A DNA stretch of 64,000 nt from Candidatus Omnitrophota bacterium. Its GTDB lineage: Bacteria; Omnitrophota; Gorgyraeia; JAHJTE01. The stretch covers positions 73,517-137,516 of the forward strand of contig JAHJTE010000002.1 of NCBI GenBank assembly GCA_018830005.1. Direction: 5' to 3'. This document shows, one piece after another, positions 1 through 15,480 of this stretch (the stretch's first letter is position 1; each line of letters begins with the position of its first letter). Position numbers and translations under genes: made by a program. The notes beneath the pieces are model-generated. The model made no database searches. It saw only the letters and a program-made list of their open reading frames with translations, and was not told the DNA's origin.

Positions 1-11
1 AGGAGAACAAG

Positions 12-584
12 ATGCTTAAAGCGCTAATATCATCAAAGATTAGAAGATTGATTTTAAAGGTGTTCCTAACTAATCCCGAAAATAAATACTACGTACGCCA
101 GCTTTCCAAGCTGATTTCTGTATCTGTAGGTAGCCTACATAGAGAACTAATTAACTTAGAAAATGAAGGCATTCTAATATCTAATTATTTAGGCAACCTA
201 AGGCAATTTTACGTTAATAAAGAGCATCCTTTGTATAAAGAAATAAAGCAGATAATTTCCAAGACCGAAGGCATAGAAGGGAGGCTAAAGGATTACCTTA
301 AAGACACCCCGGGCCTAAAGACAATTTTTATTTATGGCTCTTTTGCGGAAGGTAAAGAAAGAGCTGATAGCGATATTGACCTATTCTTATTGGGCCAGCC
401 AAGCGAAGATAAACTTATTAATAAAATTTCTGATTTAGAGAAAGAGTTTACTCGTGAAATCAACTATACTATTTACACTAAATCCGATTTCAAAAGAGAA
501 AAAAAGAAAAGAAACTCTTTTATTCTGGATTTAATGAAGCATCCCAAGGTTTTTATAAAAGGCAAAGAAAGTGACCTGCGATAA
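12..584 (+). CDS. Minimal nucleotidyltransferase (MNT-type, antitoxin-like) with N-terminal winged-helix DNA-binding domain
   Basis: RBS aggaga upstream of ATG at 12; NTase-fold motif GSFAEGKERADSDIDLFLLG; N-terminal wHTH-like segment; 14-nt overlap with downstream HEPN gene. Confidence 0.6.
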   Translation: MLKALISSKIRRLILKVFLTNPENKYYVRQLSKLISVSVGSLHRELINLENEGILISNYLGNLRQFYVNKEHPLYKEIKQIISKTEGIEGRLKDYLKDTPGLKTIFIYGSFAEGKERADSDIDLFLLGQPSEDKLINKISDLEKEFTREINYTIYTKSDFKREKKKRNSFILDLMKHPKVFIKGKESDLR

Positions 585-1038
585 ATTCATAGATGATTAT
601 ATAAATAAAGGGCTTTTGAAACGCCAAAAGGTCGGCTTTGATCAGATTGATAAATTAATTATCAGAGCTAGGAAAGACCTAGAAAGTGCACACCTTATGT
701 TAAAAAATGACCCACCTTGGGCATATAATTGCGCTTATTCAGCAATGCTTCATTCGGCAAGGGCATTTATCTTTACGAAAGGCTTCAGGCCCACGACAAA
801 TTTTCAGCATAAAACTGTTGTAGAGTTTATAGGGCATTATTTTGGTCAAAAATTTACCACATTAGTTGAAAAATTTAACCGTATGCGTAAAAACCGCAAT
901 CTCTTTATGTATGAACCCTGGAAAATCAATATATCAAAGACCGATGCGGAAAATGCCTTGAAAACTACCACTGAATTTATCGAGCTCATTGCGGAAGAAA
1001 TCAAGAAAGAACATCCCCAAAAAAACCTCAATTTCTAA
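571..1038 (+). CDS. HEPN-domain protein (partner of MNT; toxin-like)
   Basis: Overlaps upstream MNT gene; all-helical composition; R-x6-H stretch (RPTTNFQH) compatible with HEPN Rx4-6H motif; typical HEPN/MNT gene order. Confidence 0.45.
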   Translation: MTCDKFIDDYINKGLLKRQKVGFDQIDKLIIRARKDLESAHLMLKNDPPWAYNCAYSAMLHSARAFIFTKGFRPTTNFQHKTVVEFIGHYFGQKFTTLVEKFNRMRKNRNLFMYEPWKINISKTDAENALKTTTEFIELIAEEIKKEHPQKNLNF

Positions 1039-1124
1039 TCACTAATTAACCTATGCTCCAGCCTTCCTACTTAACCCTATACCAATCCAACTTCCAAGTA
1101 TTAAATCTAAGGAGAAAAAAATAA

Positions 1125-1907
1125 ATGAGTAGATTTGGGTGCATAAAAGATAAGTTTGATGATCGGGATTATTTAATGCGGGCGTATCTACCCTTGGTAA
1201 AACTTCCCAGGAAGATTGACTTGACTCTTAAGATGTCGCCGGTCAGGGACCAAGGAGAAGAAGGAACTTGTGTTAGTTTTGCCACAGCTACTGGTATGAA
1301 AGAGTATCAAGAATTACTTGATTACGAAAAATTGGTGATACTTTCCCCGCGTTTTGTCTATAGTGAATGTAGGAAGATTGACGGTATGTCTGAATTGGAA
1401 GGCACGACCATCCGCGCAGCAATGCAGGTGCTTGGAGAAAAAGGTGTCTGCCGGGAAAAATTTTGGCCATATCAAGCTCACCAGAAAGACAAAGCCAAAG
1501 AAGGAACTGTTCAAGATGCCAAAAAATTTCGTATTATAACTTACGCCCGTATACTTAACCTAAATGAGCTGCGTTTGAACCTTGTTACTAAAGGTTCCTG
1601 CGTTATTGGCATTCAGGTCTTCAAGGGGATAATGGAGACAAAAACAGGTCTTGTGCCTTTGCCAAAGAAAAATGAAACTACCTTGGGCGGCCATGCTATT
1701 TGCGCAATAGGATATGACGATAGAAAGAAAGTCATCAAATTTAAAAACTCTTGGTCTGATAAATGGGGGCAGAATGGTTACGGATTCTTACCCTATGCCT
1801 ATGTTGAGCGCTACATGATGGACGCGTGGAGCTCGGTTGATATTGAGGATCCTAACCCGCTTACTCTGGCGATTGTATTGAAGTATAGAAAGCGGGCTTT
1901 AGCTTGA
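1125..1907 (+). CDS. Papain-like cysteine peptidase, family C1, no signal peptide (cytoplasmic)
   Basis: Catalytic triad contexts: QGEEGTCVSFA (Cys), GGHAICAIGYDD (His), NSWSDKWGQNGYGF (Asn-Ser-Trp); strong RBS aaggagaaaaaaataa upstream. Confidence 0.75.
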   Translation: MSRFGCIKDKFDDRDYLMRAYLPLVKLPRKIDLTLKMSPVRDQGEEGTCVSFATATGMKEYQELLDYEKLVILSPRFVYSECRKIDGMSELEGTTIRAAMQVLGEKGVCREKFWPYQAHQKDKAKEGTVQDAKKFRIITYARILNLNELRLNLVTKGSCVIGIQVFKGIMETKTGLVPLPKKNETTLGGHAICAIGYDDRKKVIKFKNSWSDKWGQNGYGFLPYAYVERYMMDAWSSVDIEDPNPLTLAIVLKYRKRALA

Positions 1908-2013
1908 CTCGTTCAATAGGGGACGGTTCTGTTTTTAAGGCGAATTAATTCTAAAAAATAGTCTCTGTCCTTAATTTTAACTGCCAGACAAGATAATATA
2001 GAAAATCCGCCCC

Positions 2014-2042
2014 TTGACAAATGCTGTCAAATAAGGTACACT
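2014..2042 (+). promoter_or_regulatory. Candidate sigma-70 promoter with palindromic operator for the Phd/RelE operon
   Basis: TTGACA (2014-2019), 17-nt spacer, TACACT (2037-2042); -35 lies inside inverted repeat TTGACAaatgcTGTCAA (2014-2030). Confidence 0.35.
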
Positions 2043-2098
2043 TTTAATGTAGATACAGTTGCAACTACATAAATTTAAGGTCAAAAAGGGGTGAAAAC

Positions 2099-2389
2099 AT
2101 GAACATTGCTACAGATCTCGTAAAAGCGACACATATAGGAATCAGAGAATTAAAAGAACATCTATCCAGGGGAAATCTAGACAAACTATTGGTTATAACT
2201 GATAGGGGACAGCCTGTAAGTGTCAACTTGCCTTACGAAGACATCTTAGAATTGCTTGATTTACTTGATGAACTAAGTGATCCTGAAACAATAGCAACTA
2301 TCAAGAAAGGTAGAGCAGCAATAAAAGCTGGCGCTAAGGGCATACCAGTATCAAAACTATTTAAAAAACTAATAAAAAAGGCTGGATGA
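2099..2389 (+). CDS. Type II antitoxin, Phd/YefM-like
   Basis: 96 aa; acidic C-terminal tail (LLDLLDELSDPE); 4-nt ATGA overlap with downstream RelE-family toxin gene. Confidence 0.6.
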   Translation: MNIATDLVKATHIGIRELKEHLSRGNLDKLLVITDRGQPVSVNLPYEDILELLDLLDELSDPETIATIKKGRAAIKAGAKGIPVSKLFKKLIKKAG

Positions 2390-2688
2390 ACTACAAGGTT
2401 CGCTTTCCTAATAATTCTATCCAAAAGAGGCTTGAAAAAGTTCTATCAAAAATCCACAAAAGCCTCCAAAGCGAAATTATAGAAGCGATAGAGCACCTTG
2501 CTAATGACCCGCGTCCCTTTGGTAGAACTCCATTCAAGAAGCTAAGACCGCCTGTTCAATTCTATCAACTAACTGCTCAATATCGCATCAGAATAGAAAA
2601 CTACCGAGTACTTTACGATATAGATGATAAGAAAAAAATCGTATGGGTTCTTGCCTTGCGAAAAAGAAGCGAAACTACCTATAAATAA
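2386..2688 (+). CDS. Type II toxin, RelE/ParE family
   Basis: 100 aa; C-terminal signature YRIRIENYRVLYDIDDKKKIVWVLALRKR typical of RelE/ParE. Confidence 0.7.
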   Translation: MNYKVRFPNNSIQKRLEKVLSKIHKSLQSEIIEAIEHLANDPRPFGRTPFKKLRPPVQFYQLTAQYRIRIENYRVLYDIDDKKKIVWVLALRKRSETTYK

Positions 2689-2711
2689 AGCCTTCCAACC
2701 TTTCTAAGACC

Positions 2712-3683
2712 ATGCTTAAGTCATCCTATTTAGAATTATACCAAACAAACTCTCAAGCCTTCCAGGCCAAGGTAGAGAAGGCCTACAAAACCCTAGAATC
2801 CTGCACCCTATGTCCCCATAACTGTAAGGTCAACCGGTTGGAGGGACAGATTGGAACGTGTAAGACAGGAGCAAAGGCTGAGGTTTACAGCTTCATGGCA
2901 CATCATGGTGAAGAGCCACCAATTTCAGGATCCAGGGGCTCTGGAACAATATTCTTTTCAAACTGCAATCTCCATTGCTGTTATTGTCAAAATTATGAAT
3001 TTAGTCAGATGGGAGGAGGCCGCGAAGTTGAGCCTGAAGAACTGGCAAAGATAATGTTAGAGCTTCAAACTAGAGGTTGTCACAATATAAATTTTGTTAG
3101 CCCAACGCATGTTGCGAGCCAAATTCTGCAAGGAATTTGGCGAGCAATACCCATGGGTTTAGAGATCCCGTTGGTTTACAATACTGGTGGTTATGACAAT
3201 GTTGAAATCTTGAAGCTTTTTGATGGGATTATAGATATTTACCTACCTGATATGCGCTATAATGATGCTGAGATTGCGCTAAAATTATCAGGTGCTAAGG
3301 AATACCCTAAATACAACAGACTTGCCATAAAAGAAATGTGGAGACAAGTCCCAAAGGCCGAATTTGACCAAAATAAGGTCATTTTAAGAGGTATGATTAT
3401 AAGACATTTAGTGCTTCCAAATGGCCTTTCTGGGACCTCCGGAATCATGAAGTTTCTAGCAAATGAAGTGTCTAAAGAAGTCCATGTAGCTCTCATGAGC
3501 CAGTATTTTCCCTGTTTTAAGGCCTCTAAGGAGCCCAAATTGGCACGAAGAATCACTCTCCAGGAGTATGAGTCAGCGAAAGGGGAGATGTCTAAAAATG
3601 GGCTTAAAAACGGCTGGTTCCAAGATGAGCATGGCTTGGATAGATTCCAAGGTATCAATATCAAACCCAATATCACTCCGTAA
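2712..3683 (+). CDS. Radical SAM protein, PflX/COG1313-like
   Basis: CX3CX2C motif CNLHCCYC; additional N-terminal Cys cluster CTLCPHNC...C. Confidence 0.6.
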   Translation: MLKSSYLELYQTNSQAFQAKVEKAYKTLESCTLCPHNCKVNRLEGQIGTCKTGAKAEVYSFMAHHGEEPPISGSRGSGTIFFSNCNLHCCYCQNYEFSQMGGGREVEPEELAKIMLELQTRGCHNINFVSPTHVASQILQGIWRAIPMGLEIPLVYNTGGYDNVEILKLFDGIIDIYLPDMRYNDAEIALKLSGAKEYPKYNRLAIKEMWRQVPKAEFDQNKVILRGMIIRHLVLPNGLSGTSGIMKFLANEVSKEVHVALMSQYFPCFKASKEPKLARRITLQEYESAKGEMSKNGLKNGWFQDEHGLDRFQGINIKPNITP

Positions 3684-3930
3684 TACCTTAAAACAACCCA
3701 AATCTAAACAAAAGTAACCCAAAGTAAGACCCGGTAAGTTTGCCAGAGGTTTTGCACAGGTTATTTTGAACTCTCCGCAAGCCTTTGAGCCCTATATACT
3801 TATATTTGATTTGATTAAGTTCACGAAGTTAACATAAGATATATTATAAGCACTAGTGCGACATCTAGACGAATTTGAATAATTATCAAGTTTATAAAGA
3901 AATAGGTAATTCTGGCGGGATTTTTATGTT

Positions 3931-4143
3931 TTATTCTAAACCACTTTGATCAGATTTTTGTTTCTCTAAATACCTCTTAATAAGTTTTAATTGTTCTTCC
4001 CCTGGCTTAGTCTTTTCTTTCAACCATCTCTGAATTGTCCTGGTACTAACACCTAAATACCTAGCCAGATCCTTTGTCTGGTAAGAATTTGTATAAAAAT
4101 AGAATTTATGCAACTTATACCATTCTTGTAGCTCTTTTTCCAT
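3931..4143 (-). CDS. Small helix-turn-helix DNA-binding protein
   Basis: 70 aa; HTH segment DLARYLGVSTRTIQRWL; stop abuts start of upstream LAGLIDADG gene. Confidence 0.4.
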   Translation of the reverse strand: MEKELQEWYKLHKFYFYTNSYQTKDLARYLGVSTRTIQRWLKEKTKPGEEQLKLIKRYLEKQKSDQSGLE

Positions 4144-4144
4144 G

Positions 4145-5026
4145 TTAAGTCCCTACCTTTAGACCTTCTAAAAACCGCTCATACTTACGCTCTAAAAATA
4201 GCCTATTTTGGTTATTTTTATATAAAATTTCAAATAATTTAGAGCTGTCTTTGTGAGCATATATGAACATGTAGCTGTATGCATTTTTGGTCTTCTGTTT
4301 GTATATTGTCCTTTTAGGCATATCTAAAAATTCAAGACATTTTTGCAATTTCTCTATAAAATTCTCAGAGCTGCTTACAAATTTAGATCTTAATGGAAAT
4401 TTTGGCCTACGTTTATCAAAGAAAACACTGCCGTCCCCATCAAACACTCCTCGAATAAAATCTGGCAGATACTCTTGAGGTACATTTGGAAATCTTACCG
4501 TCAAGCTTTTTTTAGACCCTATTCCCAACTTTCTTAAATCCTTAATCATGCCTTCCCGGGCAAAGCGAAAAATATACAGACCTTTTTGGTATTTGGATTG
4601 CTCGATTTTGTGTGACGCTCTTAAAGCCTCCTTCACCTTTTCAAGCAACTCCCTATCATTCATACTAAGTAAAATTGTCCCCGTCTTAGAAACACATCCA
4701 TCCGTAATAACTAAACCCAGCACATATGCCATTTCATGTGACCATTTGCCAAAAAAATGTTCATTTATATCAAAGAATTCTTGTGGCGCTTTCCCTTGTT
4801 TTTGTGCCTCAATTCTAGCCTGGGATTTAGAGCGTTGCTTTATTCCATATTTCTTGAGCTTCTTAAAGATAGCTACCCGAGAAACATTGTACAATAGGGC
4901 TATCTCTTGCAACGACTTACTATCCCTTAAATACAGACTAATTAGCTTATCTTTAGTTAGTTTATTTAACTTCATTGCTATATTCAGATTAGCTAGCCTT
5001 AGATTTACCTTTAAATTTTGTGGCAA
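4145..5026 (-). CDS. LAGLIDADG-type homing-endonuclease-like protein with N-terminal sigma-70-region-4-like HTH
   Basis: Two dodecapeptide-like motifs LGLVITDGCV and IRGVFDGDGSV; N-terminal HTH SLQEIALLYNVSRVAIFKKL; true start may be internal Met near 4978. Confidence 0.55.
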   Translation of the reverse strand: MPQNLKVNLRLANLNIAMKLNKLTKDKLISLYLRDSKSLQEIALLYNVSRVAIFKKLKKYGIKQRSKSQARIEAQKQGKAPQEFFDINEHFFGKWSHEMAYVLGLVITDGCVSKTGTILLSMNDRELLEKVKEALRASHKIEQSKYQKGLYIFRFAREGMIKDLRKLGIGSKKSLTVRFPNVPQEYLPDFIRGVFDGDGSVFFDKRRPKFPLRSKFVSSSENFIEKLQKCLEFLDMPKRTIYKQKTKNAYSYMFIYAHKDSSKLFEILYKNNQNRLFLERKYERFLEGLKVGT

Positions 5027-5372
5027 GCTCTAAAAGAATTGTACGATCTTTTTCAGTTCTAGTGCCTTCAATAGCCAACTTGTATGTTCCTCCAATAACC
5101 CTAATCCTCTTACCGCATACAAGCGCCTCAGAAACATCCTTCCTGGCCTTTCTTAGTATCCTGCTGAAGGTCTGCTGGCTTATACCCATAAATAATGCCG
5201 CATCTACCTGGTTTTTGCCCTCAAAATCAGCCAATCTTATCGCCTCTAATCCTTCCAGGCTTAATTCTACTTCATCTGGCCTGCCGGCCTTGCCTCTTGG
5301 GCTAAATTGGTTAATTTCCGGGATCCCTTTAATAAGCCTTGCTTTTTTTGGTCTTCCGCGATTTTTCATCAT
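4989..5372 (-). CDS. DUF134/UPF0251 family predicted DNA-binding protein
   Basis: N-terminal GRPKKARLIKGIPEINQFSP and HTH-like MGISQQTFSRILRKARK characteristic of DUF134. Confidence 0.6.
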   Translation of the reverse strand: MMKNRGRPKKARLIKGIPEINQFSPRGKAGRPDEVELSLEGLEAIRLADFEGKNQVDAALFMGISQQTFSRILRKARKDVSEALVCGKRIRVIGGTYKLAIEGTRTEKDRTILLELATKFKGKSKAS

Positions 5373-5543
5373 AATTTAAGTATATGTTGTATTGAGTAAA
5401 TCTATAATAATAACCAGCTATTTATTTCGAGTATATACCCAATATTATATTTTACACACAAAAATTATTTTGTCAATAATAAAATAAATCGTAATCAAAT
5501 TCTTGTGTTAAAGCAATCTTTTTATGTTATAATTTAACTAACC

Positions 5544-6929
5544 ATGCAAATCAAACAATCGCAAGAACTAAAAAGACTACTAGCTCCGCAATTACAGCAA
5601 TCGCTTAAGATTCTTACTCTTCCCTTATCTGAACTTAAGAATCTTGTTTCGCAAGAACTAGAAGCAAATCCAATCCTGGAAGAATCTCGGCCAAAGGACA
5701 CTGTAATAGTAAAAATCGACTCTCAGGAACCTCCGGAAAAACCATCAGACCCCCCTTCTACCCTGGATGCCATAGATGGCTACTTTTACCATGATTCCAA
5801 ATATGTATCCAAAGACGACACCACTACCACAGACCTGCGCGCCACAGTAATTACCAAAAAAATGAACCTGCAAGAGGTCTTGCTAAGGCAACTGGGTATA
5901 TTTTCTAGTTCTGAAGATGACCTCAAGATTGGTCAGGAAATCATTGGTAATATTGATGAAAACGGTTATTTGAAGGCTACAATCCCTGAAATTGCCCAAA
6001 CCCTTAATACAACAAGCGAAAAAGTGGAAAATACGCTTAAATTGATTCAGGGATTTGAACCAAATGGGGTTGCTGCAAGGTCGATTTCTGAATGCCTCCT
6101 AAACCAGCTTAAACTAGCCAAAAAGAAAGATCTACTACTTGAAAAAATCGTGGTATGCCACTTGGATGATGTAGCAAAAAAGCGATTTCAGAAAATCGCT
6201 AAATCCCTTGATCAGCCACTTGAAGCCATAGCACCTTTAGTTGAAAAATTATCAAAACTAGACCCCAAGCCAGGCCGAAATTACAGCCTAGATTATGCCC
6301 AGCACATTGTCCCTGATGTGATAATCGATCAGGATGATAATGATTTAGCTATCACAATAAACAATGAATATATGCCCAGCTTACGAATCAACAAGATCTA
6401 TATAAGGATGCTTAAACAAAAAAACCTTGATAAAAAAACCAGGGAATTTTTAACTCAAAAACTAAAGAATGCCCTAGAATTAATCCGCGCCATAACAAGA
6501 CGTCAGTCTACTCTACGCAGGATTGTCAACTTAATAGCTCAAATTCAGAATGAAGCAATCAAAAGGAACCTTTCACATCTGAAGCCATTAACATTTCAGG
6601 ATGTGGCCCGCAACCTCAATATCCACGAAACAACAGTCTGTAGGGCAATAATGAATAAATATGCCAAGCTGCCTTACGGCATCGTTGCCCTAAAAGACTT
6701 CTTCCCCTCCTCTATTGCTAATCGCAATGGCGAAAACGTCTCCTCAACCTATGTAAAAAAGATCATTAAGGATTGTATTGATGCTGAAGACAGAAAACAT
6801 CCTCTAAGTGACAAGAAGATCTTTGAGATCCTAACAAAGGATAAGAATCTTAACATCTCAAGGCGCACTGTAGCTAAATACAGGGAAGAACTGAAAATCC
6901 TCTCATCCTCATTCCGAAAAGAACGCTAA
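5544..6929 (+). CDS. rpoN: RNA polymerase sigma-54 factor
   Basis: Gln/Leu-rich N-terminal region I; C-terminal RpoN box ARRTVAKYRE; 461 aa. Confidence 0.9.
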   Translation: MQIKQSQELKRLLAPQLQQSLKILTLPLSELKNLVSQELEANPILEESRPKDTVIVKIDSQEPPEKPSDPPSTLDAIDGYFYHDSKYVSKDDTTTTDLRATVITKKMNLQEVLLRQLGIFSSSEDDLKIGQEIIGNIDENGYLKATIPEIAQTLNTTSEKVENTLKLIQGFEPNGVAARSISECLLNQLKLAKKKDLLLEKIVVCHLDDVAKKRFQKIAKSLDQPLEAIAPLVEKLSKLDPKPGRNYSLDYAQHIVPDVIIDQDDNDLAITINNEYMPSLRINKIYIRMLKQKNLDKKTREFLTQKLKNALELIRAITRRQSTLRRIVNLIAQIQNEAIKRNLSHLKPLTFQDVARNLNIHETTVCRAIMNKYAKLPYGIVALKDFFPSSIANRNGENVSSTYVKKIIKDCIDAEDRKHPLSDKKIFEILTKDKNLNISRRTVAKYREELKILSSSFRKER

Positions 6930-6979
6930 TCATATCAAGGCGCTAAAATTTTTAGATTAGAAAATAGGTTGGACTTATA

Positions 6980-7969
6980 CTATCTGGAGGGGTTAATAAC
7001 TACAGTCGCCAAATCAATTAGTTTGTTCATTAACCTTACGTTACTGGTATCGAATTTTACAGGTGAACTTCTTAAAACACCAAGATTCATAATACCAACT
7101 ACCCTATTTTGGGAATTTATGGGAAGAACCATTGCAGATTTTAATTTAGGCCGATTAAGGCGGGATTTTATTCTATTGTCGCTCAAATCGTCATCTATTA
7201 AAAGAGGCCTGTTTTCTTGCGCAACCATACCGGAAATACCCTCTCCTAACCTAACCTTCGTAGCATTTGCGATATCAAGAGGTATACCTTTGGATGACTG
7301 AATAGTTAGAATATCTCCACTCTTTTTGAAAAACATTATTGAACCAACATCTGCATTGCTTATCTGAAAGGCTACATCTAATAAGACATTCAAAATCTTA
7401 TTTAGTTGAGATGATACTTCCAACTCTTTCTCTTTCCTTATTGCTTTATAAGCGTATTTCAAAGTAACTCCGGCAACACCAGTAATCAATTTAATCAGGG
7501 ATTGGGCATTATAAAACGATGTAACCTTTATCTCTAACAGTGCACTCCAGAGTTCATCTAGATCAATCTTTAGTTCCTCTGCTATTGGCCTATACTCATC
7601 CTTTGGGTTACGGGTAATAAAAAACATCGGACCTAAGATAAGATAGCCTAAAACCTTACCATTATCCGATGTCAAGGGCGCAACGAAGTTATGTAAGCCC
7701 GGCAGACAAACAAAATCCAGATTCCTATTTACCCTTTGCTCTCCTCCCAAAAAAGTAGGCAAGCATTTTCCGCAAATTGTATTTTTAAATTCAGAGGGTT
7801 TGATTAACTCTCTGCACAATCGCGACTCACCGCTTACCGAAGTGATAGGCTCGCCTCTTTCATCTATAGTGCGAAGACCAACACTAGTTACAACAGAAAA
7901 AGTATCCTGGATATTCTGCCACTCTTTAATGTCAATGGTATCTTTTAATGAAGCTCTCCAGAATCTCAC
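6980..7969 (-). CDS. PocR-like sensor domain + GAF domain protein
   Basis: N-terminal PocR-like segment (CLPGLHNFVAPL); C-terminal GAF-like region (EGISGMVAQENRPLLIDD); last gene of the HK/RR operon. Confidence 0.5.
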   Translation of the reverse strand: MRFWRASLKDTIDIKEWQNIQDTFSVVTSVGLRTIDERGEPITSVSGESRLCRELIKPSEFKNTICGKCLPTFLGGEQRVNRNLDFVCLPGLHNFVAPLTSDNGKVLGYLILGPMFFITRNPKDEYRPIAEELKIDLDELWSALLEIKVTSFYNAQSLIKLITGVAGVTLKYAYKAIRKEKELEVSSQLNKILNVLLDVAFQISNADVGSIMFFKKSGDILTIQSSKGIPLDIANATKVRLGEGISGMVAQENRPLLIDDDLSDNRIKSRLNRPKLKSAMVLPINSQNRVVGIMNLGVLRSSPVKFDTSNVRLMNKLIDLATVVINPSR

Positions 7970-7971
7970 TG

Positions 7972-9402
7972 TTAGTTTCTACCCCTATCAGTAGCTTTGT
8001 TCGCCTCTAACAGACCGAACTTGCACATCTTTTTATAAAGTGTAGTTCTATTAATCCCTAATATCTTTGCTGCTTCGTTCCTGCTGCCTCCTACAGATGC
8101 AAGGACATTGACTATGATATCTTTCTCTGGATTAGCCAAGGCCTGCTTTAATTTCAATCTATCACCATTATCCCCGGAAACTGAAGCTGCCAACTTAGGC
8201 TTCTGCAAGTATTCAGGGAAATCATCCGGTGAGATTATCGTTTGTTTGCTTAAAATCACAGCCCTTTCTATTACATTCTCAAGCTCTCTGACGTTTCCTG
8301 GCCAAGGACAATTCGAAAGGACTGCTAGTGCTGCCCGGGAAAAGCCATCAATCTTTTTTCCCAGATGCTTTGAATGCTTCTTTATAAACTCATCAGCCAA
8401 TATTTCAATATCCTCTCTGCGATCCCGTAAAGGCGGAACCTCAATTGAGATAATATTCAAACGATAATATAGGTCCTGGCGGAATTTGCCCTGGGCTATT
8501 AATTCCTCTAGATTATGGTTTGTGGCAGCGATTACGCGCACATCTACTTTGATTGTATTGGTATCCCCTACCTTCTCAAGTTCACCCTCCTGCAACACTC
8601 TTAGTAACTTCACCTGAAGCGCAGGTGAAAATGCATCAATCTCATCTAAAAATATAGAGCCGCCATCAGCCAGCTCAAAACGGCCAATCCTATCTTTGAT
8701 TGCTCCGGTATAAGCGCCTTTTACATGGCCAAAAAGCTCACTTTCAAGCAATGTCTCGCTTAATGCACCGCAGCTAACCTCAACAAATGGCTTATTACGT
8801 TCTTTTTCGTTGTATTTATGAATAGCATGGGCAATCAGATGTTTTCCAGTTCCGCTTTCACCATGAATTAAAACCGTAGCCCTTGTTGTGGCAATCGCCT
8901 CAACGAGCGTATAAATCTTTTGCATCTTCAGGCTTTTACCAACGATGTCGTGAAAACGCTCTTTATGAGTAAGGGATAATTCTTCTTTTAATTTTATATT
9001 TTCATCAATTAGTCTACGCTGCTGCATTATACGTTCGATGATAATCTTGACTTCACTATCCACTATCGGCTTTGTTATATAATCATACGCACCGTTTTTC
9101 ATGGCCTCAACTGCATTTTCAATTGAACCAAAGCCAGTCATTAATATAACGGGGGTATCGGGTGAGATGATCTTTACATTCTTTAAAAGATGGACACCGT
9201 CCATTTTCGGCATCTTGATATCAGTAATGACTACATCCATAGTGTATTTCTTCAATAGCTCAAGCGCATCTTCGCTATTAGAGGCAGTACTTACAGTGTA
9301 GCCTGAGAGGGTCAATACCTCACTGAGTGAGCGCATTACCAAAGGCTCATCATCAACAACTAAGATATGCGTTCCGTTAGAATCTACTTTAGGTCTAAAC
9401 AT
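7972..9402 (-). CDS. Sigma-54-dependent response regulator (NtrC family; PrsR-like candidate)
   Basis: Receiver domain (VVDDEP...D); AAA+ sigma-54 interaction domain GESGTGKHLIAHAIH with GAYTGA; C-terminal Fis-type HTH. Confidence 0.9.
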   Translation of the reverse strand: MFRPKVDSNGTHILVVDDEPLVMRSLSEVLTLSGYTVSTASNSEDALELLKKYTMDVVITDIKMPKMDGVHLLKNVKIISPDTPVILMTGFGSIENAVEAMKNGAYDYITKPIVDSEVKIIIERIMQQRRLIDENIKLKEELSLTHKERFHDIVGKSLKMQKIYTLVEAIATTRATVLIHGESGTGKHLIAHAIHKYNEKERNKPFVEVSCGALSETLLESELFGHVKGAYTGAIKDRIGRFELADGGSIFLDEIDAFSPALQVKLLRVLQEGELEKVGDTNTIKVDVRVIAATNHNLEELIAQGKFRQDLYYRLNIISIEVPPLRDRREDIEILADEFIKKHSKHLGKKIDGFSRAALAVLSNCPWPGNVRELENVIERAVILSKQTIISPDDFPEYLQKPKLAASVSGDNGDRLKLKQALANPEKDIIVNVLASVGGSRNEAAKILGINRTTLYKKMCKFGLLEANKATDRGRN

Positions 9403-10600
9403 TCTCTAAATATTTTTGAGGTATGCTAATCGTAAATACAGTGCCTTTCTCAAAACAGCTGGCTACATTAATTGCTCCCTCATATTTATTTACTATCTCT
9501 CTTGAAATTGCAAGGCCTAATCCTGTACCTTTGCCCTTTTCCTTCGTAGAGAAGAAAGGTTCAAATATGGCCTGCTGGATGTCACTAGGAATGCCAGTGC
9601 CTGTATCTCTAAAGCTTATTTCAACAACTGAGTCCTTTAACCCTGTAGAGATCTCAAAGTCGCCTCCCTCAGGCATAACATCTAAGGCATTCTTTATAAT
9701 ATTGATGAATACACGCGAAAGTCCGATATCATCTATGCGCGGTAAATGTTTTGAGTAATTCCTGCTAACTCTAATGCCAGCATGAATCTTATCTTTTAGG
9801 CACACGAGTGAATCATCCAAAAGTGCATTAATATCTACAAAGCTCTTAACGCTTCTTTGTCTAGAATTTACAAGTTGAGAAAACTCAACAAGCGACTTTG
9901 TGATATTTGCAATCCGGTTTAATCCCTTCTTAGCCTCTGTCAAATACTCTCTGGCAACGCTATCTGATTCCATCTTCTCAAGCAGAAAGAGCGCCATATT
10001 TGTATAGCGGATTACACCATCTAAAGGATTGTTTATTTCATGTACCAGGTTAGCTGCTAATTTTCCCACAGAGGCATATTTTTCCAATAGGGTTGGCTGA
10101 TCTTCCCTTCCATTCTCCAAGGCCTTATCTATATTGCCAGAGTCAATTGCCATGCAGGCATATTTAACCATTGTTTCTGCACATTTCAGATCCTGTTCTG
10201 TAAAAGATTCCCCTGAAGACTTATCTGCAACATTAATTAAAGCAAGAAGCCCCTCTGATGCAAACACAGGTATAGAAATAAATGACTTTGTGCGATAATG
10301 ACTAAAGCCATTCTGTCGAAAACGTTCATCTGTTCCGATGTCTTTAACCAGAACCGCAGTCTTTATATCAACCACCTTTCCCGTAATGCCCTCTCCTATT
10401 CTGCGCCTTAGGCCCTTAAAGTTCAAATCCTGTGAATTATGGAATGAATCCAAAACTAATTCTTTATTCTCAGAATCAAATATAAACAAGGAACCGCATT
10501 CAGCGCTCAAAACCGACATTATGTCTTTAAGCGCACTGTTTAGAAAATCGCTCACAGAATTATTTGTTGCTTTAGTCACTGCTAATTTCGCACTATTCAT
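9395..10600 (-). CDS. GAF-sensor histidine kinase
   Basis: N-terminal GAF; H-box LVHEINNPLDGV; HATPase_c motifs (GTGLGLAISREIV); overlaps RR gene by 8 nt. Confidence 0.85.
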   Translation of the reverse strand: MNSAKLAVTKATNNSVSDFLNSALKDIMSVLSAECGSLFIFDSENKELVLDSFHNSQDLNFKGLRRRIGEGITGKVVDIKTAVLVKDIGTDERFRQNGFSHYRTKSFISIPVFASEGLLALINVADKSSGESFTEQDLKCAETMVKYACMAIDSGNIDKALENGREDQPTLLEKYASVGKLAANLVHEINNPLDGVIRYTNMALFLLEKMESDSVAREYLTEAKKGLNRIANITKSLVEFSQLVNSRQRSVKSFVDINALLDDSLVCLKDKIHAGIRVSRNYSKHLPRIDDIGLSRVFINIIKNALDVMPEGGDFEISTGLKDSVVEISFRDTGTGIPSDIQQAIFEPFFSTKEKGKGTGLGLAISREIVNKYEGAINVASCFEKGTVFTISIPQKYLENV

Positions 10601-11450
10601 CTTTATTACTCACCCCGCTTAATTCCTCTAAAAGCTTCTTTGAATAATTAACAAACCTGCTTTCAGGGTAGATCTTAATTAATTGCTGTAGAGATTCTTT
10701 CGCCTTATCATTATCTTTTAATTTATCTTTGTAAATCCTTGCCTTGTCTATAAATAGAGTGTCTATCTTTACAGTGTCTTTATAATTTACGATTATAGTA
10801 TCGATTGTCTTAACCGCATTGATCCAGTCCTGGAGTTCAAGATAACATCTTACTGCCAAACTATAAGCATTAAGGCCTAAAGGAGTATCCGGATGTCTTA
10901 CTGCCAAAACCTTATAATGAATAGCAGCCTCATTAAAAGCTGAGTTCATTTGGGCAGTTTGATTCTTTACCTTATAATGCTCTGCTATATAAATAGGCAT
11001 TCCTAAGCCCCTAATTGTTACCGGGTAATCTTTGATGATTAGATTGTATTTTCTCAAGGCCTCATTCCAATTACCTTCTATTTCATAGGTATTGCCAAAC
11101 AGATATAGTGCTTCTGAGGCAATCAATTTATCAGTCTTGTATTTGGCGGCTAGTTTAGTTAGATAGTCTCTACCCCTAATATAGTCTTCTTTAACAATAA
11201 AAAGCCGAGGTATGGTAAACTCGGCTTTAAGAGAAAGATTATTGTTCGGGTATTTATTTATAAACTTCTGTAGTTTATCAACTGCGGCTTGTAATTCTTT
11301 AGGGGGTGAGGCATGAGGATTCTTGAAAATCTTATCTGTTAACCTCTGTGCCCGCCAATATTCCCTCTCAATGCTATATTGATCAGCAGTACAACTTGCC
11401 AAGGAAAAGCAAAAACCGACTAAGATTATTAGAATAAAGAGTTTTTTCAT
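10593..11450 (-). CDS. TPR-repeat lipoprotein
   Basis: Signal peptide with lipobox LASC; Tyr/Ala-rich TPR-like repeats; co-operonic with HK/RR. Confidence 0.6.
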   Translation of the reverse strand: MKKLFILIILVGFCFSLASCTADQYSIEREYWRAQRLTDKIFKNPHASPPKELQAAVDKLQKFINKYPNNNLSLKAEFTIPRLFIVKEDYIRGRDYLTKLAAKYKTDKLIASEALYLFGNTYEIEGNWNEALRKYNLIIKDYPVTIRGLGMPIYIAEHYKVKNQTAQMNSAFNEAAIHYKVLAVRHPDTPLGLNAYSLAVRCYLELQDWINAVKTIDTIIVNYKDTVKIDTLFIDKARIYKDKLKDNDKAKESLQQLIKIYPESRFVNYSKKLLEELSGVSNKDE

Positions 11451-12331
11451 CTATCTTGAGACTTTTTATGCCCTAAGTACAACAAGGTCGTTGACATGAT
11501 AATCAGTGGGTCTATGATTAAAGAGCCTATTATTATACTTATACCTACAACAAAAAGAATGAATTCTGGGAAAAATTTATTGATTAAGAATAGCTTATTG
11601 GCATTTAAGATAATTATCGGGATATATAAAAGCATGGGCAAACCAACCAAAATAAGCGTAGCAATGAACTTCTTTAGGAAAAATACAATTGAATTACCAA
11701 TTGCCTTAAACAGGTTTTTATTATCTATAATTATTCCGGGGATAGCGTAAATGAATAGCGCCTGCAACAATACCGCAACTACGAAATTTAAAATTATAAA
11801 GATAGGGCCGATCCAGACTTTAGCACTAAGAAAGAGTAATCTTTCATGGCCAGCTACGAAATACTTAGCTAAACTAACGGTTAGTATCTTTGTAAACACA
11901 TAGTAGCCAAGAGTAAAGATTAAAACAACAGTAAAAAGAGAAAGATATTTCTTAATCGCTACATTAAAACACTTAGCTAAATTTATATGTTTATTTTTAT
12001 AAATATCGAAGATTATGGCAACCGCCATACCGGTCAATAAAGAGCCTATAAGGATAGTAAGCCCCATCCTTGCGTTGGAGACTATTTTAGGCAACAATAA
12101 GAAATTAAACGGGTAATGAAGAAATTTCTCACCCCAAAGGGTTCTTATTGGCGGGCCAAGTACAGCTACCAGAGGTACTCTTGGAGCTAGAGATAGAATA
12201 ATGAAGGAAAGATATTCAAAACTTATAAAAAGTATAAAGGGGATAAAAACAAGAGGGGCGCTTTTAAAAATTTGAAAAGACCTAACATAGGATTGTTTTA
12301 CTAAAGATACAGGGGAATCCTGAGAGCTCAT
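11447..12331 (-). CDS. Polytopic membrane protein (unknown function), first gene of regulator operon
   Basis: At least 7 hydrophobic segments; 4-nt overlap with downstream gene. Confidence 0.4.
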   Translation of the reverse strand: MSSQDSPVSLVKQSYVRSFQIFKSAPLVFIPFILFISFEYLSFIILSLAPRVPLVAVLGPPIRTLWGEKFLHYPFNFLLLPKIVSNARMGLTILIGSLLTGMAVAIIFDIYKNKHINLAKCFNVAIKKYLSLFTVVLIFTLGYYVFTKILTVSLAKYFVAGHERLLFLSAKVWIGPIFIILNFVVAVLLQALFIYAIPGIIIDNKNLFKAIGNSIVFFLKKFIATLILVGLPMLLYIPIIILNANKLFLINKFFPEFILFVVGISIIIGSLIIDPLIIMSTTLLYLGHKKSQDR

Positions 12332-14271: not shown

Positions 14272-15156
14272 TTACCTCGCTCCCCTTCCGGTTAAAACTA
14301 TTACAACCGTATTGGCTAAAATTCTTAAATCTACTAATAAGCACATTTTTTTAATATATAAAATGTCGTATTTAATTTTCTTCTTTACGTCCTCAATTGT
14401 CTCATCATATTTATGCCAAACCTGCGCCAGTCCGGTTATCCCTGGCTTTACTACTAGACGTTGCTCATAATCACGAATTAATGTCCTTAAATCTCTAACT
14501 AGTTCCGGTCTCTCAGGCCTAGGTCCAACAATACTCATCTCACCCTTCAAAACATTAATTAACTGTGGAATCTCATCTATGTGGAGTTTTCTTAAGATTC
14601 TACCAACTGGAGTAATGCGTGGATCGTCTTTTCTGGCCCAAATTGCACCAGTAGCATTTTCTGCATCAAAGTACATAGTTCGCAATTTATAAATTTTAAA
14701 AAGTTCACCAAACCTTCCCATCCTATCCTGCTTATATACAATAGGACCTTTTGAGGTTAGCTTTATAATAGTGCCTGCAACTAAAAGAAATGGGAACGAT
14801 AGGACTAATCCAGTGCTAGCAAGCATAATGTCCATTATCCTCTTAAGTCTTTCAAAGCTTCTACGGACAAAACGAACTATAAGTCCGGTAACCCCGCTTA
14901 AAAGTAGAAACAAGGTGTTAAACTCAGGAGCGCGTGATTTCTCTGGAGTTTTAGCTGAAATGACAGGCTTACTATAATCAACAGTGCCTACTATATCCTG
15001 GGAGGAAATCTCTGAAGAGTCTAAATAAGTAACAGCAAAGGTCTGGCTTTCATCAAAACTTGATAAGAATAGAAAAAGACCAATTACGCAAATAAACGCA
15101 ACTAGTATCTTCTTAAAATTTGCTGTTGTCCTTAATTGTCCTGTATTTTGATTCAT
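14272..15156 (-). CDS. Polyprenyl-phosphate sugar phosphotransferase (bacterial sugar transferase, EpsB/WbaP-like priming enzyme)
   Basis: C-terminal Bac_transf signature DEIPQLINVLKGEMSIVGPRPERPE and KPGITGLAQV; N-terminal TM segments. Confidence 0.85.
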   Translation of the reverse strand: MNQNTGQLRTTANFKKILVAFICVIGLFLFLSSFDESQTFAVTYLDSSEISSQDIVGTVDYSKPVISAKTPEKSRAPEFNTLFLLLSGVTGLIVRFVRRSFERLKRIMDIMLASTGLVLSFPFLLVAGTIIKLTSKGPIVYKQDRMGRFGELFKIYKLRTMYFDAENATGAIWARKDDPRITPVGRILRKLHIDEIPQLINVLKGEMSIVGPRPERPELVRDLRTLIRDYEQRLVVKPGITGLAQVWHKYDETIEDVKKKIKYDILYIKKMCLLVDLRILANTVVIVLTGRGAR

Positions 15157-15183
15157 ATTTCTGCCTTTGTATCTTATATAAGA

Positions 15184-15199
15184 GCATTTTTTATGCCAA
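15184..15199 (-). promoter_or_regulatory. Candidate sigma-54 (-24/-12) promoter upstream of priming sugar transferase/PEP-CTERM genes
   Basis: Minus-strand TTGGCATAAAAAATGC: GG-N10-GC spacing, TGGCAt / aTGCt vs consensus TGGCAC-N5-TTGCW; about 28 nt upstream of ATG at 15156. Confidence 0.4.
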
Positions 15200-15480
15200 C
15201 TTTGCCTTATTGGTAAAAACTTTTTTTATGTTTTTTAACTTATTACTTTTCAATGGGTTATGAAAATAAAATTTTAAAAAAAATACATGCCAAATTTATG
15301 TTTTGGTCTTAGTATATGTTTTTGTTCCCAAAAGGAAACACAGATTAGATAAATTTTAAGATAAATACCATAACTTATTATTTAACAATATGTTATGAAA
15401 ATTTAATTTAAAATATGTATATATACATAAGGTGTTCATTTTTAAACAATTCTTAACAAAAATAAAGAGGAAATTGGATT

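Follow-up and report, generated by a model that had tools for sequence, protein, structure and literature searches.

A two-gene LAGLIDADG/HTH cassette tied to dif at the replication terminus of an Omnitrophota chromosome

Introduction

The dif site is where joined sister chromosomes get separated. A precedent for genes packed against it is found in E. coli K-12, in which only 76 nt separate the end of the toxin-antitoxin operon hipBA from dif, whose XerC arm faces the operon. Xer sites of plasmids employ accessory proteins next to the core site, and XerD is activated by XafT (PMC9226527). Furthermore, the linkage of xerS and difSL in streptococci was interpreted as a functional module (PMC1914069).

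Here, a 64-kb stretch of DNA from a Candidatus Omnitrophota bacterium (contig JAHJTE010000002.1; hereafter the window) was analyzed, with emphasis on positions 1-5400. All nine genes listed in the original prediction were confirmed at their coordinates. That prediction took the region for a defence and addiction island gained by horizontal transfer, and missed both its location at the terminus and the tie of a LAGLIDADG gene and a small HTH gene to dif. No description of this linkage was found in the literature.

Results and discussion

Replication terminus and dif site

The replication terminus of this Omnitrophota chromosome falls within positions 1-5400. A 28-bp dif site lies at 3827-3854 on the minus strand, with a XerC arm (AGTGCTTATAA), a TATATC centre and a XerD arm (TTATGTTAACT). 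It was identical to E. coli dif at 22 of 28 positions and to B. subtilis dif also at 22 of 28, based on the reference sequences quoted in PMC3025954, and its XerD arm matched the references at 10 of 11 positions. A search allowing up to 3 mismatches found it as a single copy across the window, with a chance expectation of 0. The cumulative GC skew reached its maximum in the bin containing dif (3012-4011), and the mean GC skew was +0.094 over the 13 kb left of the dif region and -0.153 over the 59 kb to its right. Gene orientation switches at dif, where the genes converge. The site was conserved in all 29 related loci, and in 24 of 25 other loci GC skew was greater on the side of dif where the LAGLIDADG gene lies.

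The spacer at 3684-3930, previously noted as ORF-free, is therefore not featureless, since it houses dif and conserved flanking DNA. The XerD-side DNA is semi-conserved at 3704-3760 (minus strand) and contains CCTGTGCAAAA at 3750-3760 and four yTTAC/G motifs at an exact 10-nt spacing (3704-3738). The blocks CTGTG.A.AA and TTAC...TTAC were kept across loci, including two (L088 and L089) that carry no LAGLIDADG and small HTH genes. For this DNA, consensus RNA structure prediction gave 0 pairs and comparison with Rfam gave no credible match.

A cassette tied to dif

The minus-strand trio of the original description is transcribed towards dif: a DUF134 DNA-binding protein (4989-5372; DUF134, E 1e-23), an HTH-LAGLIDADG endonuclease-family protein of 276 aa (4145-4975) and a small HTH protein of 70 aa (3931-4143; HTH_23, HTH_3 and HTH_17 matches). 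The closest sigma-70-like promoter sequence for the trio (TTGACA-16-TAAAAT, 5449-5476, minus strand), a candidate by consensus match only, agrees at 11 of 12 hexamer positions and precedes the DUF134 start by about 77 nt.

Together, the LAGLIDADG gene and that of its small DNA-binding partner make up a two-gene cassette physically tied to dif. In all 29 non-redundant Omnitrophota-type loci, the LAGLIDADG stop codon lay 198-345 nt from dif on the same strand, and the cassette was placed outside the XerC arm with transcription towards dif. The outer flanks differed and have been reshuffled many times, whereas this interval and orientation were never broken. The same geometry was detected in two anammox-type loci (Scalindua L034, 44 nt, and L256, 65 nt) and in one Bacteroidales locus (L075), and the adjacency in other phyla comes with different dif sequences. 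Among further anammox-type homologues, two of three (L254 and L257) had no recognisable dif alongside.

The surrounding genes were less constant. In 17 of the 29 loci, DUF134 immediately preceded the LAGLIDADG gene, and in L088 and L089 it adjoins dif itself. On the other side, a radical SAM enzyme, originally annotated as such (2712-3683, plus strand; Radical_SAM/Fer4_12), is convergent on dif. Its orthologues occurred downstream in 6 of 29 loci; those in L002, L013, L017, L029 and L036 (E ~1e-121) were 0.9-4.3 kb beyond dif, and the gene was also near dif in L088 and L089. The latter two loci lack the cassette but hold the radical SAM gene, DUF134 and dif together with its XerD-side DNA. A cluster of rpoN and a sigma-54 activator was nearby in 7 of 29 loci.

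The LAGLIDADG protein

The LAGLIDADG motifs were supported by HMM (LAGLIDADG_3, E 5e-15, two stretches), and the N-terminal HTH is YlxM-like. A free-standing LAGLIDADG protein with its own HTH had been considered uncommon. This view did not hold, as the phage endonuclease family phrog_4645 covers the protein over its full length (E 2e-48) and relatives were present in 153 phage records. An AlphaFold2 model (pLDDT 85.6) gave I-Tsp061I (E 4e-10), I-DmoI and intein endonucleases as top Foldseek matches. The catalytic residues D92, K156 and D181 were invariant among homologues, and both Asp of this Asp/Asp/Lys set were retained even in relatives of only 25-45% identity. The cassette is derived from phage-type HTH-LAGLIDADG homing endonucleases and has an intact catalytic set; its LAGLIDADG protein appears to be a functional endonuclease.

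The most probable start of the gene is the ATG at 4975, in agreement with the deposited protein (P0001) and all homologues, and a TTG at 5026 is an unlikely one. Therefore, the gene does not overlap that of DUF134.

Across the same genomes, the LAGLIDADG protein showed 56-71% identity, compared to 39-53% for RpoN. Near-identical copies across species were absent, with the closest at 74%. Together, these values are more in line with a gene long inherited vertically under selection than with one that spread recently. Distances between pairs of LAGLIDADG proteins also tracked those of the neighbouring DUF134 (Mantel r 0.70), which, along with the presence of DUF134 at cassette-free sites, suggests vertical descent.

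The small HTH partner and an invariant 9-mer

The small HTH gene follows the LAGLIDADG gene in at least 22 loci, and natural fusions carry it at the LAGLIDADG C-terminus (P0071, P0075, P0110, P0112 and L032). One nucleotide from the XerC arm is an invariant 9-mer, ATGTCGCAC (3856-3864, minus strand), a putative binding site of the small HTH protein. All 22 loci with a canonical small HTH gene had it with 0-1 mismatch, against 0 of 7 others, in which the partner is replaced or diverged and this position has 2-8 mismatches. Its 8-mer core was at -9 from dif in 21 of the 22 loci and occurred elsewhere just 3 times in 253 kb of loci; the 9-mer is single-copy in the window. The key case is L010, which has a LAGLIDADG protein of 71% identity but a different partner and no 9-mer. 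By sequence inspection, the ORFs at the partner position looked RHH-like in L021, L023 and L031 and Xre-like in L010. Such partner swapping resembles that of antitoxin or controller proteins.

Possible roles of the cassette

As a whole, the evidence is best explained, though only tentatively, by a cassette that acts in cis on the dif flank, most likely as a selfish homing or addiction element. The small HTH protein would bind the 9-mer abutting the XerC arm and, alone or as a natural fusion, would position the LAGLIDADG nuclease on the dif flank; the cassette would then persist through this cis action. Targets of the nuclease would be dif flanks without the cassette, or cells losing it, with the partner serving to protect or regulate an occupied allele. 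In dif, the one intergenic site that is indispensable to a circular chromosome, the cassette may thereby have a target and a safe harbour at once. The signs of vertical descent described above, and the two anammox-type homologues away from a recognisable dif (L254 and L257), speak against this reading. Occupied and empty sites showed no difference in their dif cores; therefore, a putative dif-cutting enzyme would need protection of its own allele. The empty sites in L088 and L089 could be losses rather than never-invaded alleles.

A possible but somewhat less probable role is that of an accessory recruited by the host for the dif/Xer system or for terminus processing, with the small HTH protein, bound at the 9-mer next to XerC, and the LAGLIDADG protein both in the dif nucleoprotein complex. 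They might set when or in which order XerC and XerD exchange strands, stand in for activation by FtsK, keep foreign elements from integrating at dif or act on DNA where forks fuse, and selection for cis-linkage would keep the genes beside their site, as for xerS-difSL, a linkage read as a functional module on like evidence (PMC1914069). The strong purifying selection on the LAGLIDADG protein (56-74% identity, above RpoN) and its congruence with the neighbouring host gene DUF134 argue for such a role. The 9-mer lies past the operon end and not at a promoter, which is what an accessory site would require, and the XerD-side DNA is conserved even without the cassette. Plasmid Xer sites and XafT provide parallels (PMC9226527), and the small HTH protein matched the VC1465/XafT family at E 0.002. 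However, this match reached 18 bits against a cut-off of 70, no better than many generic HTH matches. L088 and L089, from related genomes, do without the cassette, the partner is exchanged for unrelated folds, and degraded copies were found (an internal deletion in L036, fragments in L035). A purely architectural role would need no retained catalytic residues, and the window contains no Xer or FtsK gene.

It is improbable that the trio is a conserved operon of transcription regulators with a domesticated, WhiA-like LAGLIDADG protein, lying near dif through inherited synteny without function. WhiA shows that LAGLIDADG folds can turn regulator and appeared at rank 25 of the Foldseek search, all three proteins have HTH modules, and the rpoN cluster adjoins in 7 loci. 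However, WhiA is generally described as lacking catalytic residues, which are retained here, and LAGLIDADG_WhiA remained below threshold (17.6 vs 23.2 bits). Inherited synteny also fits poorly with a cassette-dif order unbroken despite reshuffled flanks, with its recurrence in other phyla beside different dif sequences, and with a 9-mer directly beside dif whose presence follows that of the small HTH gene.

The reading of 1-5400 as one acquired defence/addiction island, with the C1 peptidase at 1125-1907 working with an MNT/HEPN pair, is very unlikely. The MNT/HEPN match to a PADLOC defence candidate, the Phd-like/ParE pair, the lack of both pairs in the dif regions of relatives and the polymorphism of an IS in a sister MAG are in its favour. 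The left part, 1 to ~2700, proved variable. For 2712-5400 the island reading is largely refuted: neither the trio nor the radical SAM gene belongs to an acquired block, because the radical SAM gene (6/29), DUF134 (17/29) and rpoN (7/29) are syntenic in relatives. Moreover, no compositional anomaly was present, as no gene of 1-5400 deviated by more than ~2 SD in GC or GC3, and the region is not bounded by an integrase gene, by att sites or by another dif-like site. The proposed partnership of the peptidase with HEPN/MNT was not borne out either, since its homologues stand alone in unrelated gene contexts and never consistently beside MNT/HEPN.

An Xer-site-based element at dif is likewise very unlikely despite its fitting position and the weak excisionase-like and XafT-like matches of the small HTH protein, because each locus has a single dif-like site (no second one above 12 bits, true sites 25-45), no consistent half-site occurs within 4 kb, and replication or phage genes are missing.

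Accessory genes left of dif

The genes of 1 to ~2700 were absent from the 6 to 10 kb on either side of every related locus outside the species, and a same-species MAG has an additional IS in this part. The MNT/HEPN and Phd-like/ParE pairs and this IS are ordinary accessory genes accumulated in the terminus region, whereas the radical SAM gene and the C1 peptidase are conserved, unrelated genes.

The MNT/HEPN pair was recovered as predicted, with its 14-nt overlap. The MNT-type nucleotidyltransferase, an antitoxin-like partner of HEPN (12-584, plus strand; Pfam Polbeta/NTP_transf_2), matched PDC-M05A (E 8e-50) of the PADLOC defence candidate PDC-M05A/B and scored 33 bits against NCBIfam MntA, under the 60-bit cut-off. 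The HEPN-domain protein (571-1038, plus strand; Pfam HEPN, E 2e-12) matched PDC-M05B (E 2e-17).

For the Phd-RelE pair, the toxin and the palindromes were substantiated and the antitoxin less so. The toxin (2386-2688, plus strand) belongs to the ParE/RelE superfamily (ParE_toxin, E 2e-10; TIGR02385 RelE_StbE, E 2e-4) and its gene overlaps by 4 nt that of a Phd/YefM-like antitoxin (2099-2389, plus strand) of weak, below-threshold similarity (PF02604, E 0.026). Inverted repeats upstream (2014-2073, plus strand), with TTGACA-N5-TGTCAA at 2014-2030 and 14-nt arms at 2044-2073, form a plausible operator, and a sigma-70-like hexamer pair is present at 2014-2042.

The C1 peptidase (260 aa, plus strand; Peptidase_C1, E 7e-21) had no hydrophobic signal peptide on inspection and kept its catalytic contexts, as originally stated, with Q43, C49, H190 and N208 invariant in 10 homologues. 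Identity was 71-88% among the best 120 of 443 homologues. This stand-alone C1A cysteine peptidase is xylellain-like, with xylellain as the nearest solved structure (PDB 3OIS, E 4e-31).

A dif site at the replication terminus

The window derives from an Omnitrophota MAG. Its region around 3.8 kb carries the signature of a replication terminus, because the maximum of the cumulative GC skew (bin 3012–4011) coincides with a convergence of genes. L006, the corresponding locus of a MAG of the same species, extends 10 kb further to the left, and all genes in this extra sequence lie on the plus strand. From about 7 kb to 64 kb of the window, nearly all long ORFs are carried by the minus strand. The genes therefore converge near 3.8 kb. 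The mean GC skew was +0.094 over the 13 kb to the left of this point and −0.153 over the 59 kb to its right. Among 25 other loci with enough flanking sequence, 24 showed a higher skew on the side of the LAGLIDADG gene and its small HTH partner than beyond dif.

A 36-nt element lies 3' of the small HTH gene, and a comparison of related loci showed that it is conserved far above the surrounding proteins. Its last 28 nt (3827–3854, minus strand) form a dif site, AGTGCTTATAA-TATATC-TTATGTTAACT, in which two 11-nt arms flank a 6-nt centre. The XerD arm is of the TTATGTnAAnT type, and the inner part of the XerC arm is ATAA. The site is identical at 22 of 28 positions to the dif of E. coli and, equally, at 22 of 28 to that of B. 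subtilis, including 10 of 11 positions in the XerD arm; both reference sequences were defined experimentally (Kono et al. 2011, PMC3025954). At three or fewer mismatches it occurs once in the 64 kb, where 0 chance matches are expected. Across loci, the XerD arm and the inner XerC arm were nearly invariant and the outer XerC arm was variable, as is usual for dif sites. Among intergenic sites, dif alone is indispensable to almost every circular bacterial chromosome. A promoter and a DnaA-box region at the origin were also considered for this spacer element and were dropped because the element matches dif and the skew changes in the direction of a terminus, not of an origin. A motif search for Xer-like recombinases found none in the 64-kb window.

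The 71-kb contig of the sister MAG (JBDRIX010000002.1, which holds L006) ends inside dif, at window position 3849, and the Logan assembly of SRR6514730 is likewise interrupted nearby, at about 1.9–2.0 kb. Population heterogeneity at dif or close to it may account for these breaks. Elsewhere in the window, a marked AT-rich stretch lies between long ORFs at 15001–15750, with a GC content of 0.25–0.28 compared to a window mean of 0.377.

Linkage of the LAGLIDADG cassette to dif across genomes

Beside dif stand an HTH-LAGLIDADG gene (4145–4975, minus strand) and the gene of a 70-aa HTH protein (3931–4143, minus strand), together called the cassette here. For the LAGLIDADG gene, the most probable start codon is the ATG at 4975, which gives a product of 276 aa. 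The deposited protein P0001 from a Candidatus Omnitrophica MAG, 100% identical to this product, has the same length, as do all homologues. An exact-protein look-up found this deposited 276-aa protein and no record for the 293-aa ORF or for the C1 peptidase ORF.

The LAGLIDADG protein has 491 homologues, the best 120 of which show 63–74% identity to it and a length of about 276 aa. One genome per GTDB species was scanned, and together with context look-ups this gave 29 non-redundant Omnitrophota-type loci. In all 29, a dif-like site follows the LAGLIDADG stop codon at 198–345 nt, on the same strand and with the XerC arm first, and no rearrangement breakpoint falls between cassette and dif in these loci. 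The outer flanks vary. A DUF134 gene, located at 4989–5372 on the minus strand of the window, is directly upstream in 17 of the 29 loci, rpoN with a sigma-54 activator cluster is upstream in 7, and other genes occupy the upstream position in the remaining loci. Across dif, a radical SAM orthologue lies 0.9–4.3 kb away in five loci; in the window the radical SAM gene (2712–3683, plus strand) is directly adjacent.

The same geometry, with different dif sequences, was found at three loci outside the Omnitrophota. The gap between gene and dif is 44 nt in Candidatus Scalindua arabica (L034) and 65 nt in an anammox-type metagenome contig (L256), and dif follows the gene immediately in a Bacteroidales MAG (L075). 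The linkage in fixed orientation is present in dozens of species from at least two phyla. At a further locus, L033, the dif-like site is inverted and 1.5 kb away, and adjacency to dif was not seen in L254 and L257, nor in distant Firmicutes and phage relatives. An HTH-LAGLIDADG paralogue of 25% identity (L070), in the same MAG as locus L025 and elsewhere in that genome, has no adjoining dif-like site; the dif linkage is therefore specific to one subfamily.

A metagenome search with the radical SAM protein returned no close relative (best match 57%) and yielded two loci, L088 and L089, that keep DUF134, the radical SAM gene, and dif with its conserved XerD-side DNA. Both are devoid of the LAGLIDADG gene, the small HTH gene and the 9-mer described below. 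Their radical SAM proteins are 55–57% identical to that of the window, as are those of cassette-bearing relatives. Viral contigs and phage and plasmid records contained only distant relatives (at most 35% identity) and no Omnitrophota copy of the cassette.

Several features of the flanks were recorded in addition. In three loci that have no DUF134 gene upstream (L019, L022 and L035), an ORF of about 140 aa directly precedes the LAGLIDADG gene, and its receiver domain matches the NtrC query at E = 1e-12 to 1e-15. A similar receiver-type ORF lies about 1.7 kb upstream of the DUF134, LAGLIDADG and small HTH trio in L008, before the DUF134 gene. At 430–520 of the Bacteroidales locus L075, a tandem array of the 7-mers CTGTCAA and CCGTCAA is found about 60 nt past the dif-like site. 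In the window, the stretch 5544–12331 contains rpoN and, beside it, a conserved opposite-strand run that encodes a PocR/GAF protein, a sigma-54 activator, a GAF histidine kinase and TPR proteins. This cluster is followed by PEP-CTERM-domain genes, and it is syntenic in several Omnitrophota (L001, L002, L012–L014 and L018).

A 9-mer beside the XerC arm covaries with the small HTH partner

One nucleotide outside the XerC arm of dif lies the 9-mer ATGTCGCAC (3856–3864, minus strand). A small HTH partner was counted as canonical at a phmmer E of 2e-16 or better. The 9-mer is present at 0–1 mismatch in exactly the 22 loci with a canonical partner, and it shows 2–8 mismatches in the 7 loci in which the partner is absent, strongly diverged or replaced. 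With the loci taken as independent, the probability of such a 22/7 split is about 1 in 1.6 million (1/C(29,7)); their kinship makes the true significance weaker. The 8-mer core stands at −9 from dif in 21 of the 22 loci and has three further occurrences in 253 kb of locus sequence.

The replacement ORFs are located between the LAGLIDADG gene and dif. By inspection, they are Xre-like in L010 (115 aa, 4044–4388) and RHH-like in L021 (about 6850–7042), L023 (about 6850–7021) and L031 (1168–1365). The 9-mer next to dif is missing from all four. The L010 locus is the telling case for covariation, as its LAGLIDADG protein is 71% identical to that of the window, yet partner and 9-mer both differ. Because it covaries with the canonical partner gene, the 9-mer is best read as a putative binding site of the small HTH protein, placed beside XerC rather than at the operon promoter. 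In addition, four homologues (P0071, P0075, P0110 and P0112) and locus L032 have the small HTH as a C-terminal extension of the LAGLIDADG protein. These natural fusions therefore link the two proteins functionally.

The LAGLIDADG protein is a predicted nuclease

The chain contains two LAGLIDADG motifs, YVLGLVITDGC and FIRGVFDGDGS, and their assignment in the original prediction is backed by the Pfam model LAGLIDADG_3, which matches two stretches at E = 5e-15. The phage family PHROG 4645, annotated 'endonuclease', matches the whole chain (residues 4–269, E = 2e-48). A tblastn search found relatives in 153 phage records, with the listed matches 27–33% identical over more than 90% of the length. 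The annotations of the phage hits read intron, intein or homing endonuclease, and 104 of the matches cover at least 80% of the protein. A free-standing LAGLIDADG protein with its own HTH had been regarded as uncommon in bacteria; the phage matches show that the architecture is common in phages.

An AlphaFold2 model was obtained with a pLDDT of 85.6. The model and its Foldseek matches indicate a pseudo-dimeric alpha-beta-beta-alpha-beta-beta-alpha fold. The matches were I-Tsp061I (E = 4e-10), I-DmoI (about 1e-6), PI-PfuI and PI-SceI, and WhiA (3HYI) ranked 25th; I-Tsp061I was also the best PDB match by sequence. The last acidic residue of each motif, D92 and D181, is invariant in 25 sequences, in agreement with the expected conservation of the catalytic acidic residues, and both are retained in relatives of 25–45% identity. 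K156, 25 residues before D181, is likewise invariant in the 25 sequences, and we take it to be the counterpart of Lys301 of PI-SceI. WhiA is generally described as devoid of these acidic residues, and the maturases have likewise lost them. Their retention here suggests a nuclease that would still be catalytic.

Conserved DNA on the XerD side of dif

Semi-conserved blocks lie about 65–150 nt beyond the XerD arm. In the window they comprise the block CCTGTGCAAAA (3750–3760, minus strand), semi-conserved across loci, and four yTTAC/G motifs (3704–3738, minus strand) at a spacing of exactly 10 nt. The first block reads CCTGTGGATAAG in many relatives, and the consensus of the box is CCTGTG(G/C)A(T/A)AA(G). 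The blocks are kept with or without the cassette, including at the cassette-free loci L088 and L089. They look like phased protein-binding sites that would belong to the dif region itself.

An RNA gene in the spacer 3684–3930 was rejected, with no Rfam match and no conserved structure. RNAalifold over 16 loci predicted 0 pairs in the XerD-side DNA. At the Rfam gathering threshold only a tRNA at 54561 was found in the window, and a relaxed search gave one match at chance level.

Comparison with known systems

The nearest conceptual precedent is xerS-difSL of streptococci and lactococci, in which the linkage of gene and site persists amid changing surroundings and which its authors read as a single genetic module (PMC1914069). 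There, as here, the gene of a DNA-acting protein stays linked to the dimer-resolution site. However, the linked gene of xerS-difSL is the tyrosine recombinase itself, whereas here it encodes a protein of a LAGLIDADG nuclease family accompanied by an HTH protein, and the site is a classical XerCD-type dif of 28 bp.

Small factors that bind DNA or protein, such as XafT of TLC-phi, and ArgR/PepA or ArcA at plasmid cer and psi, alter the action of XerC and XerD beside the core site (PMC9226527). The 9-mer likewise lies beside a core site, at 1 nt from the XerC arm. Unlike XafT, the small HTH protein has no significant match to the VC1465 family (E = 0.002, 18 bits versus a 70-bit cut-off). We know of no nuclease partner in these accessory and activation systems.

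The hipBA operon of E. coli K-12 encodes a toxin and a DNA-binding antitoxin near dif, with the XerC arm proximal and thus in the same geometry. The proteins are unrelated, HipA being a kinase. Neither a conserved site abutting dif nor a cross-phylum conservation of the linkage is known to us for hipBA.

Phage HTH-LAGLIDADG endonucleases, for example that of Brevibacillus phage Jenst and the 'DOD homing endonucleases' of staphylococcal phages, have the same N-terminal HTH and double LAGLIDADG core with catalytic Asp residues. The phage counterparts are encoded within phage genes, for example recA or DNA polymerase, or in the gaps between them. In contrast, the members of this clade are chromosomal and occur once in each fetched locus. 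They are 56–74% conserved between species, are coupled with a small DNA-binding partner and have a fixed place next to dif.

WhiA, a domesticated transcription factor of Gram-positive bacteria, also combines a free-standing bacterial LAGLIDADG fold with an HTH, and its domain order, with a C-terminal HTH, is reproduced by the natural fusions of LAGLIDADG and small HTH proteins. An identity with WhiA was rejected, as PF14527 scored 17.6 bits against a cut-off of 23.2 bits and D92, D181 and K156 are retained. A linkage of WhiA to dif is not known to us.

A selfish element or a host function

The firmest inference is a cis action of the cassette at the dif flank. Tentatively, it may be a selfish homing or addiction element. 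The origin of its family among phage homing endonucleases and the retention of the catalytic residues favor this reading, and so do the degraded copies in L036 (internal deletion) and L035 (fragmented). The loci L088 and L089, syntenic and free of the cassette, also fit the presence/absence polymorphism expected of homing at one site, although these empty sites may be losses. By inspection, the partner has been swapped between HTH and apparent RHH folds, which would resemble the behavior of antitoxins and controller proteins. In E. coli K-12, the hipBA operon stops 76 nt short of dif and is oriented likewise, which may offer a further analogy.

A host function as an accessory of Xer or the terminus is somewhat less likely. 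In favor of such a function, the LAGLIDADG protein exceeds RpoN of the same genomes in conservation (56–71% versus 39–53%), and no near-identical copies were shared between species among the best 120 of the 491 homologues. Its pairwise distances are correlated with those of DUF134 (Mantel r 0.70), and DUF134 is present at the empty sites as well. The Mantel correlations with DUF134 and with the small HTH protein were significant and are compatible with a vertical or a horizontal history. Those with RpoN, the radical SAM protein and NtrC were non-significant, with only 5–7 taxa.

A specific form of host function, in which the LAGLIDADG protein and its partner are a cis-acting component of dimer resolution or the terminus in Omnitrophota and anammox Planctomycetes, is unlikely. 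A dedicated HTH protein would dock the still-catalytic former homing endonuclease beside the XerC arm, and the docked nuclease would control, partly replace or police Xer recombination. Possible modes could include FtsK-independent activation, blocking of foreign integration at dif, and nuclease processing of unresolved termini.

[quoted passage not shown]

Each of the parts, namely dif, a homing-endonuclease family and HTH partners, is of a known kind. Known exploiters of dif, such as IMEX phages and islands and plasmid dif modules, work through the Xer recombinases themselves. So far, no description seems to exist of such a cassette that is linked to dif in a fixed manner across phyla and has a site of its own next to the XerC arm. 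In a full-text literature search, LAGLIDADG was not combined with Omnitrophota, XerC or chromosome dimer resolution, and 'homing endonuclease', 'dif site' and XerD co-occurred only in an unrelated review. The search on DUF134 matched only unrelated DUF13xx work.

If the cassette is selfish, homing or addiction at an indispensable site would be a new strategy; if it is a host accessory, it would add a new layer to Xer recombination. The Omnitrophota and anammox bacteria are lineages with poorly understood cell division and chromosome segregation. Either reading offers a candidate 9-bp operator, natural empty sites and natural fusion proteins, together with a 21-bp candidate target that consists of the 9-mer, one T and the XerC arm. 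The cassette is also a practical marker for the terminus and dif in fragmented Omnitrophota MAGs.

Other genes of the 1–5400 region

ORF listing and Pfam/NCBIfam scans recovered all nine genes claimed for the region. Its interpretation as a horizontally acquired island was largely not borne out. A composition test for horizontal transfer over 1–5400 found no gene beyond about 2 SD.

The MNT nucleotidyltransferase gene (12–584) overlaps the HEPN gene (571–1038) by 14 nt. This adjacent pair fits the family models of the HEPN/MNT module, a type VII toxin-antitoxin system, and matches the PADLOC candidate PDC-M05 (PDC-M05A for MNT, E = 8e-50; PDC-M05B for HEPN, E = 2e-17). MNT scored below the cut-off of the NCBIfam MntA equivalog. 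The RNase activity of the HEPN protein is uncertain because, by inspection, RNLFMY stands at the usual C-terminal position of the Rx4-6H motif.

The second pair consists of a small Phd-like gene (2099–2389) and a ParE/RelE-type toxin gene (2386–2688), which overlap by 4 nt. It had been described as a Phd-RelE pair with a palindromic operator. The toxin (ParE_toxin, E = 2e-10), the overlap and inverted repeats at 2014–2073 were all confirmed, and the Phd assignment is weak (PF02604, E = 0.026). An ordinary type II toxin-antitoxin module appears to be present here.

Neither toxin-antitoxin pair was found in the dif regions of relatives, and in a synteny comparison for 1–2700, no relative had the left-flank genes near its cassette. 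The same-species MAG GCA_043815545.1 contains an IS of about 1 kb after window position 1928 (L006 11918–12940), between the C1 peptidase and Phd-like genes, which the window does not have. The IS encodes a 319-aa rve transposase, its ends carry the terminal inverted repeats TGTACTAGCTCA, and the apparent target duplication is ACGGT(T). Apart from the IS, the two sequences differ by one SNP over 3.8 kb. The absence of the toxin-antitoxin pairs from relatives and the IS polymorphism indicate, therefore, that this side of the terminus collects accessory DNA.

The Peptidase_C1 gene (1125–1907) encodes a protein that matches PF00112 (E = 7e-21) and also the phage family phrog_16701 (E = 2e-23). 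Q43, C49, H190 and N208, the Gln-Cys-His-Asn catalytic set, are invariant. The peptidase had been proposed as a partner of HEPN/MNT, and the genomic contexts gave no link between them. It has 443 homologues, of which the best 120 are 71–88% identical and nearly all about 260 aa, and its gene always stands alone in unrelated contexts (five loci, L168–L172) of MAGs labeled Omnitrophota, Elusimicrobia, Zixibacteria and Nitrospirae. Strong constraint, recent transfer across phyla and mis-binning are possible causes of this uniformity and distribution.

The closest solved structure is xylellain, a C1A enzyme of Xylella fastidiosa (PDB 3OIS, E = 4e-31, residues 2–231). Both are bacterial C1A enzymes with a short N-terminal extension and the same catalytic Gln/Cys/His/Asn set. 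The aligned stretch is only moderately similar, roughly 35–40% identical by eye, and, compared to xylellain, the Omnitrophota C1 family is a very uniform 260-aa protein.
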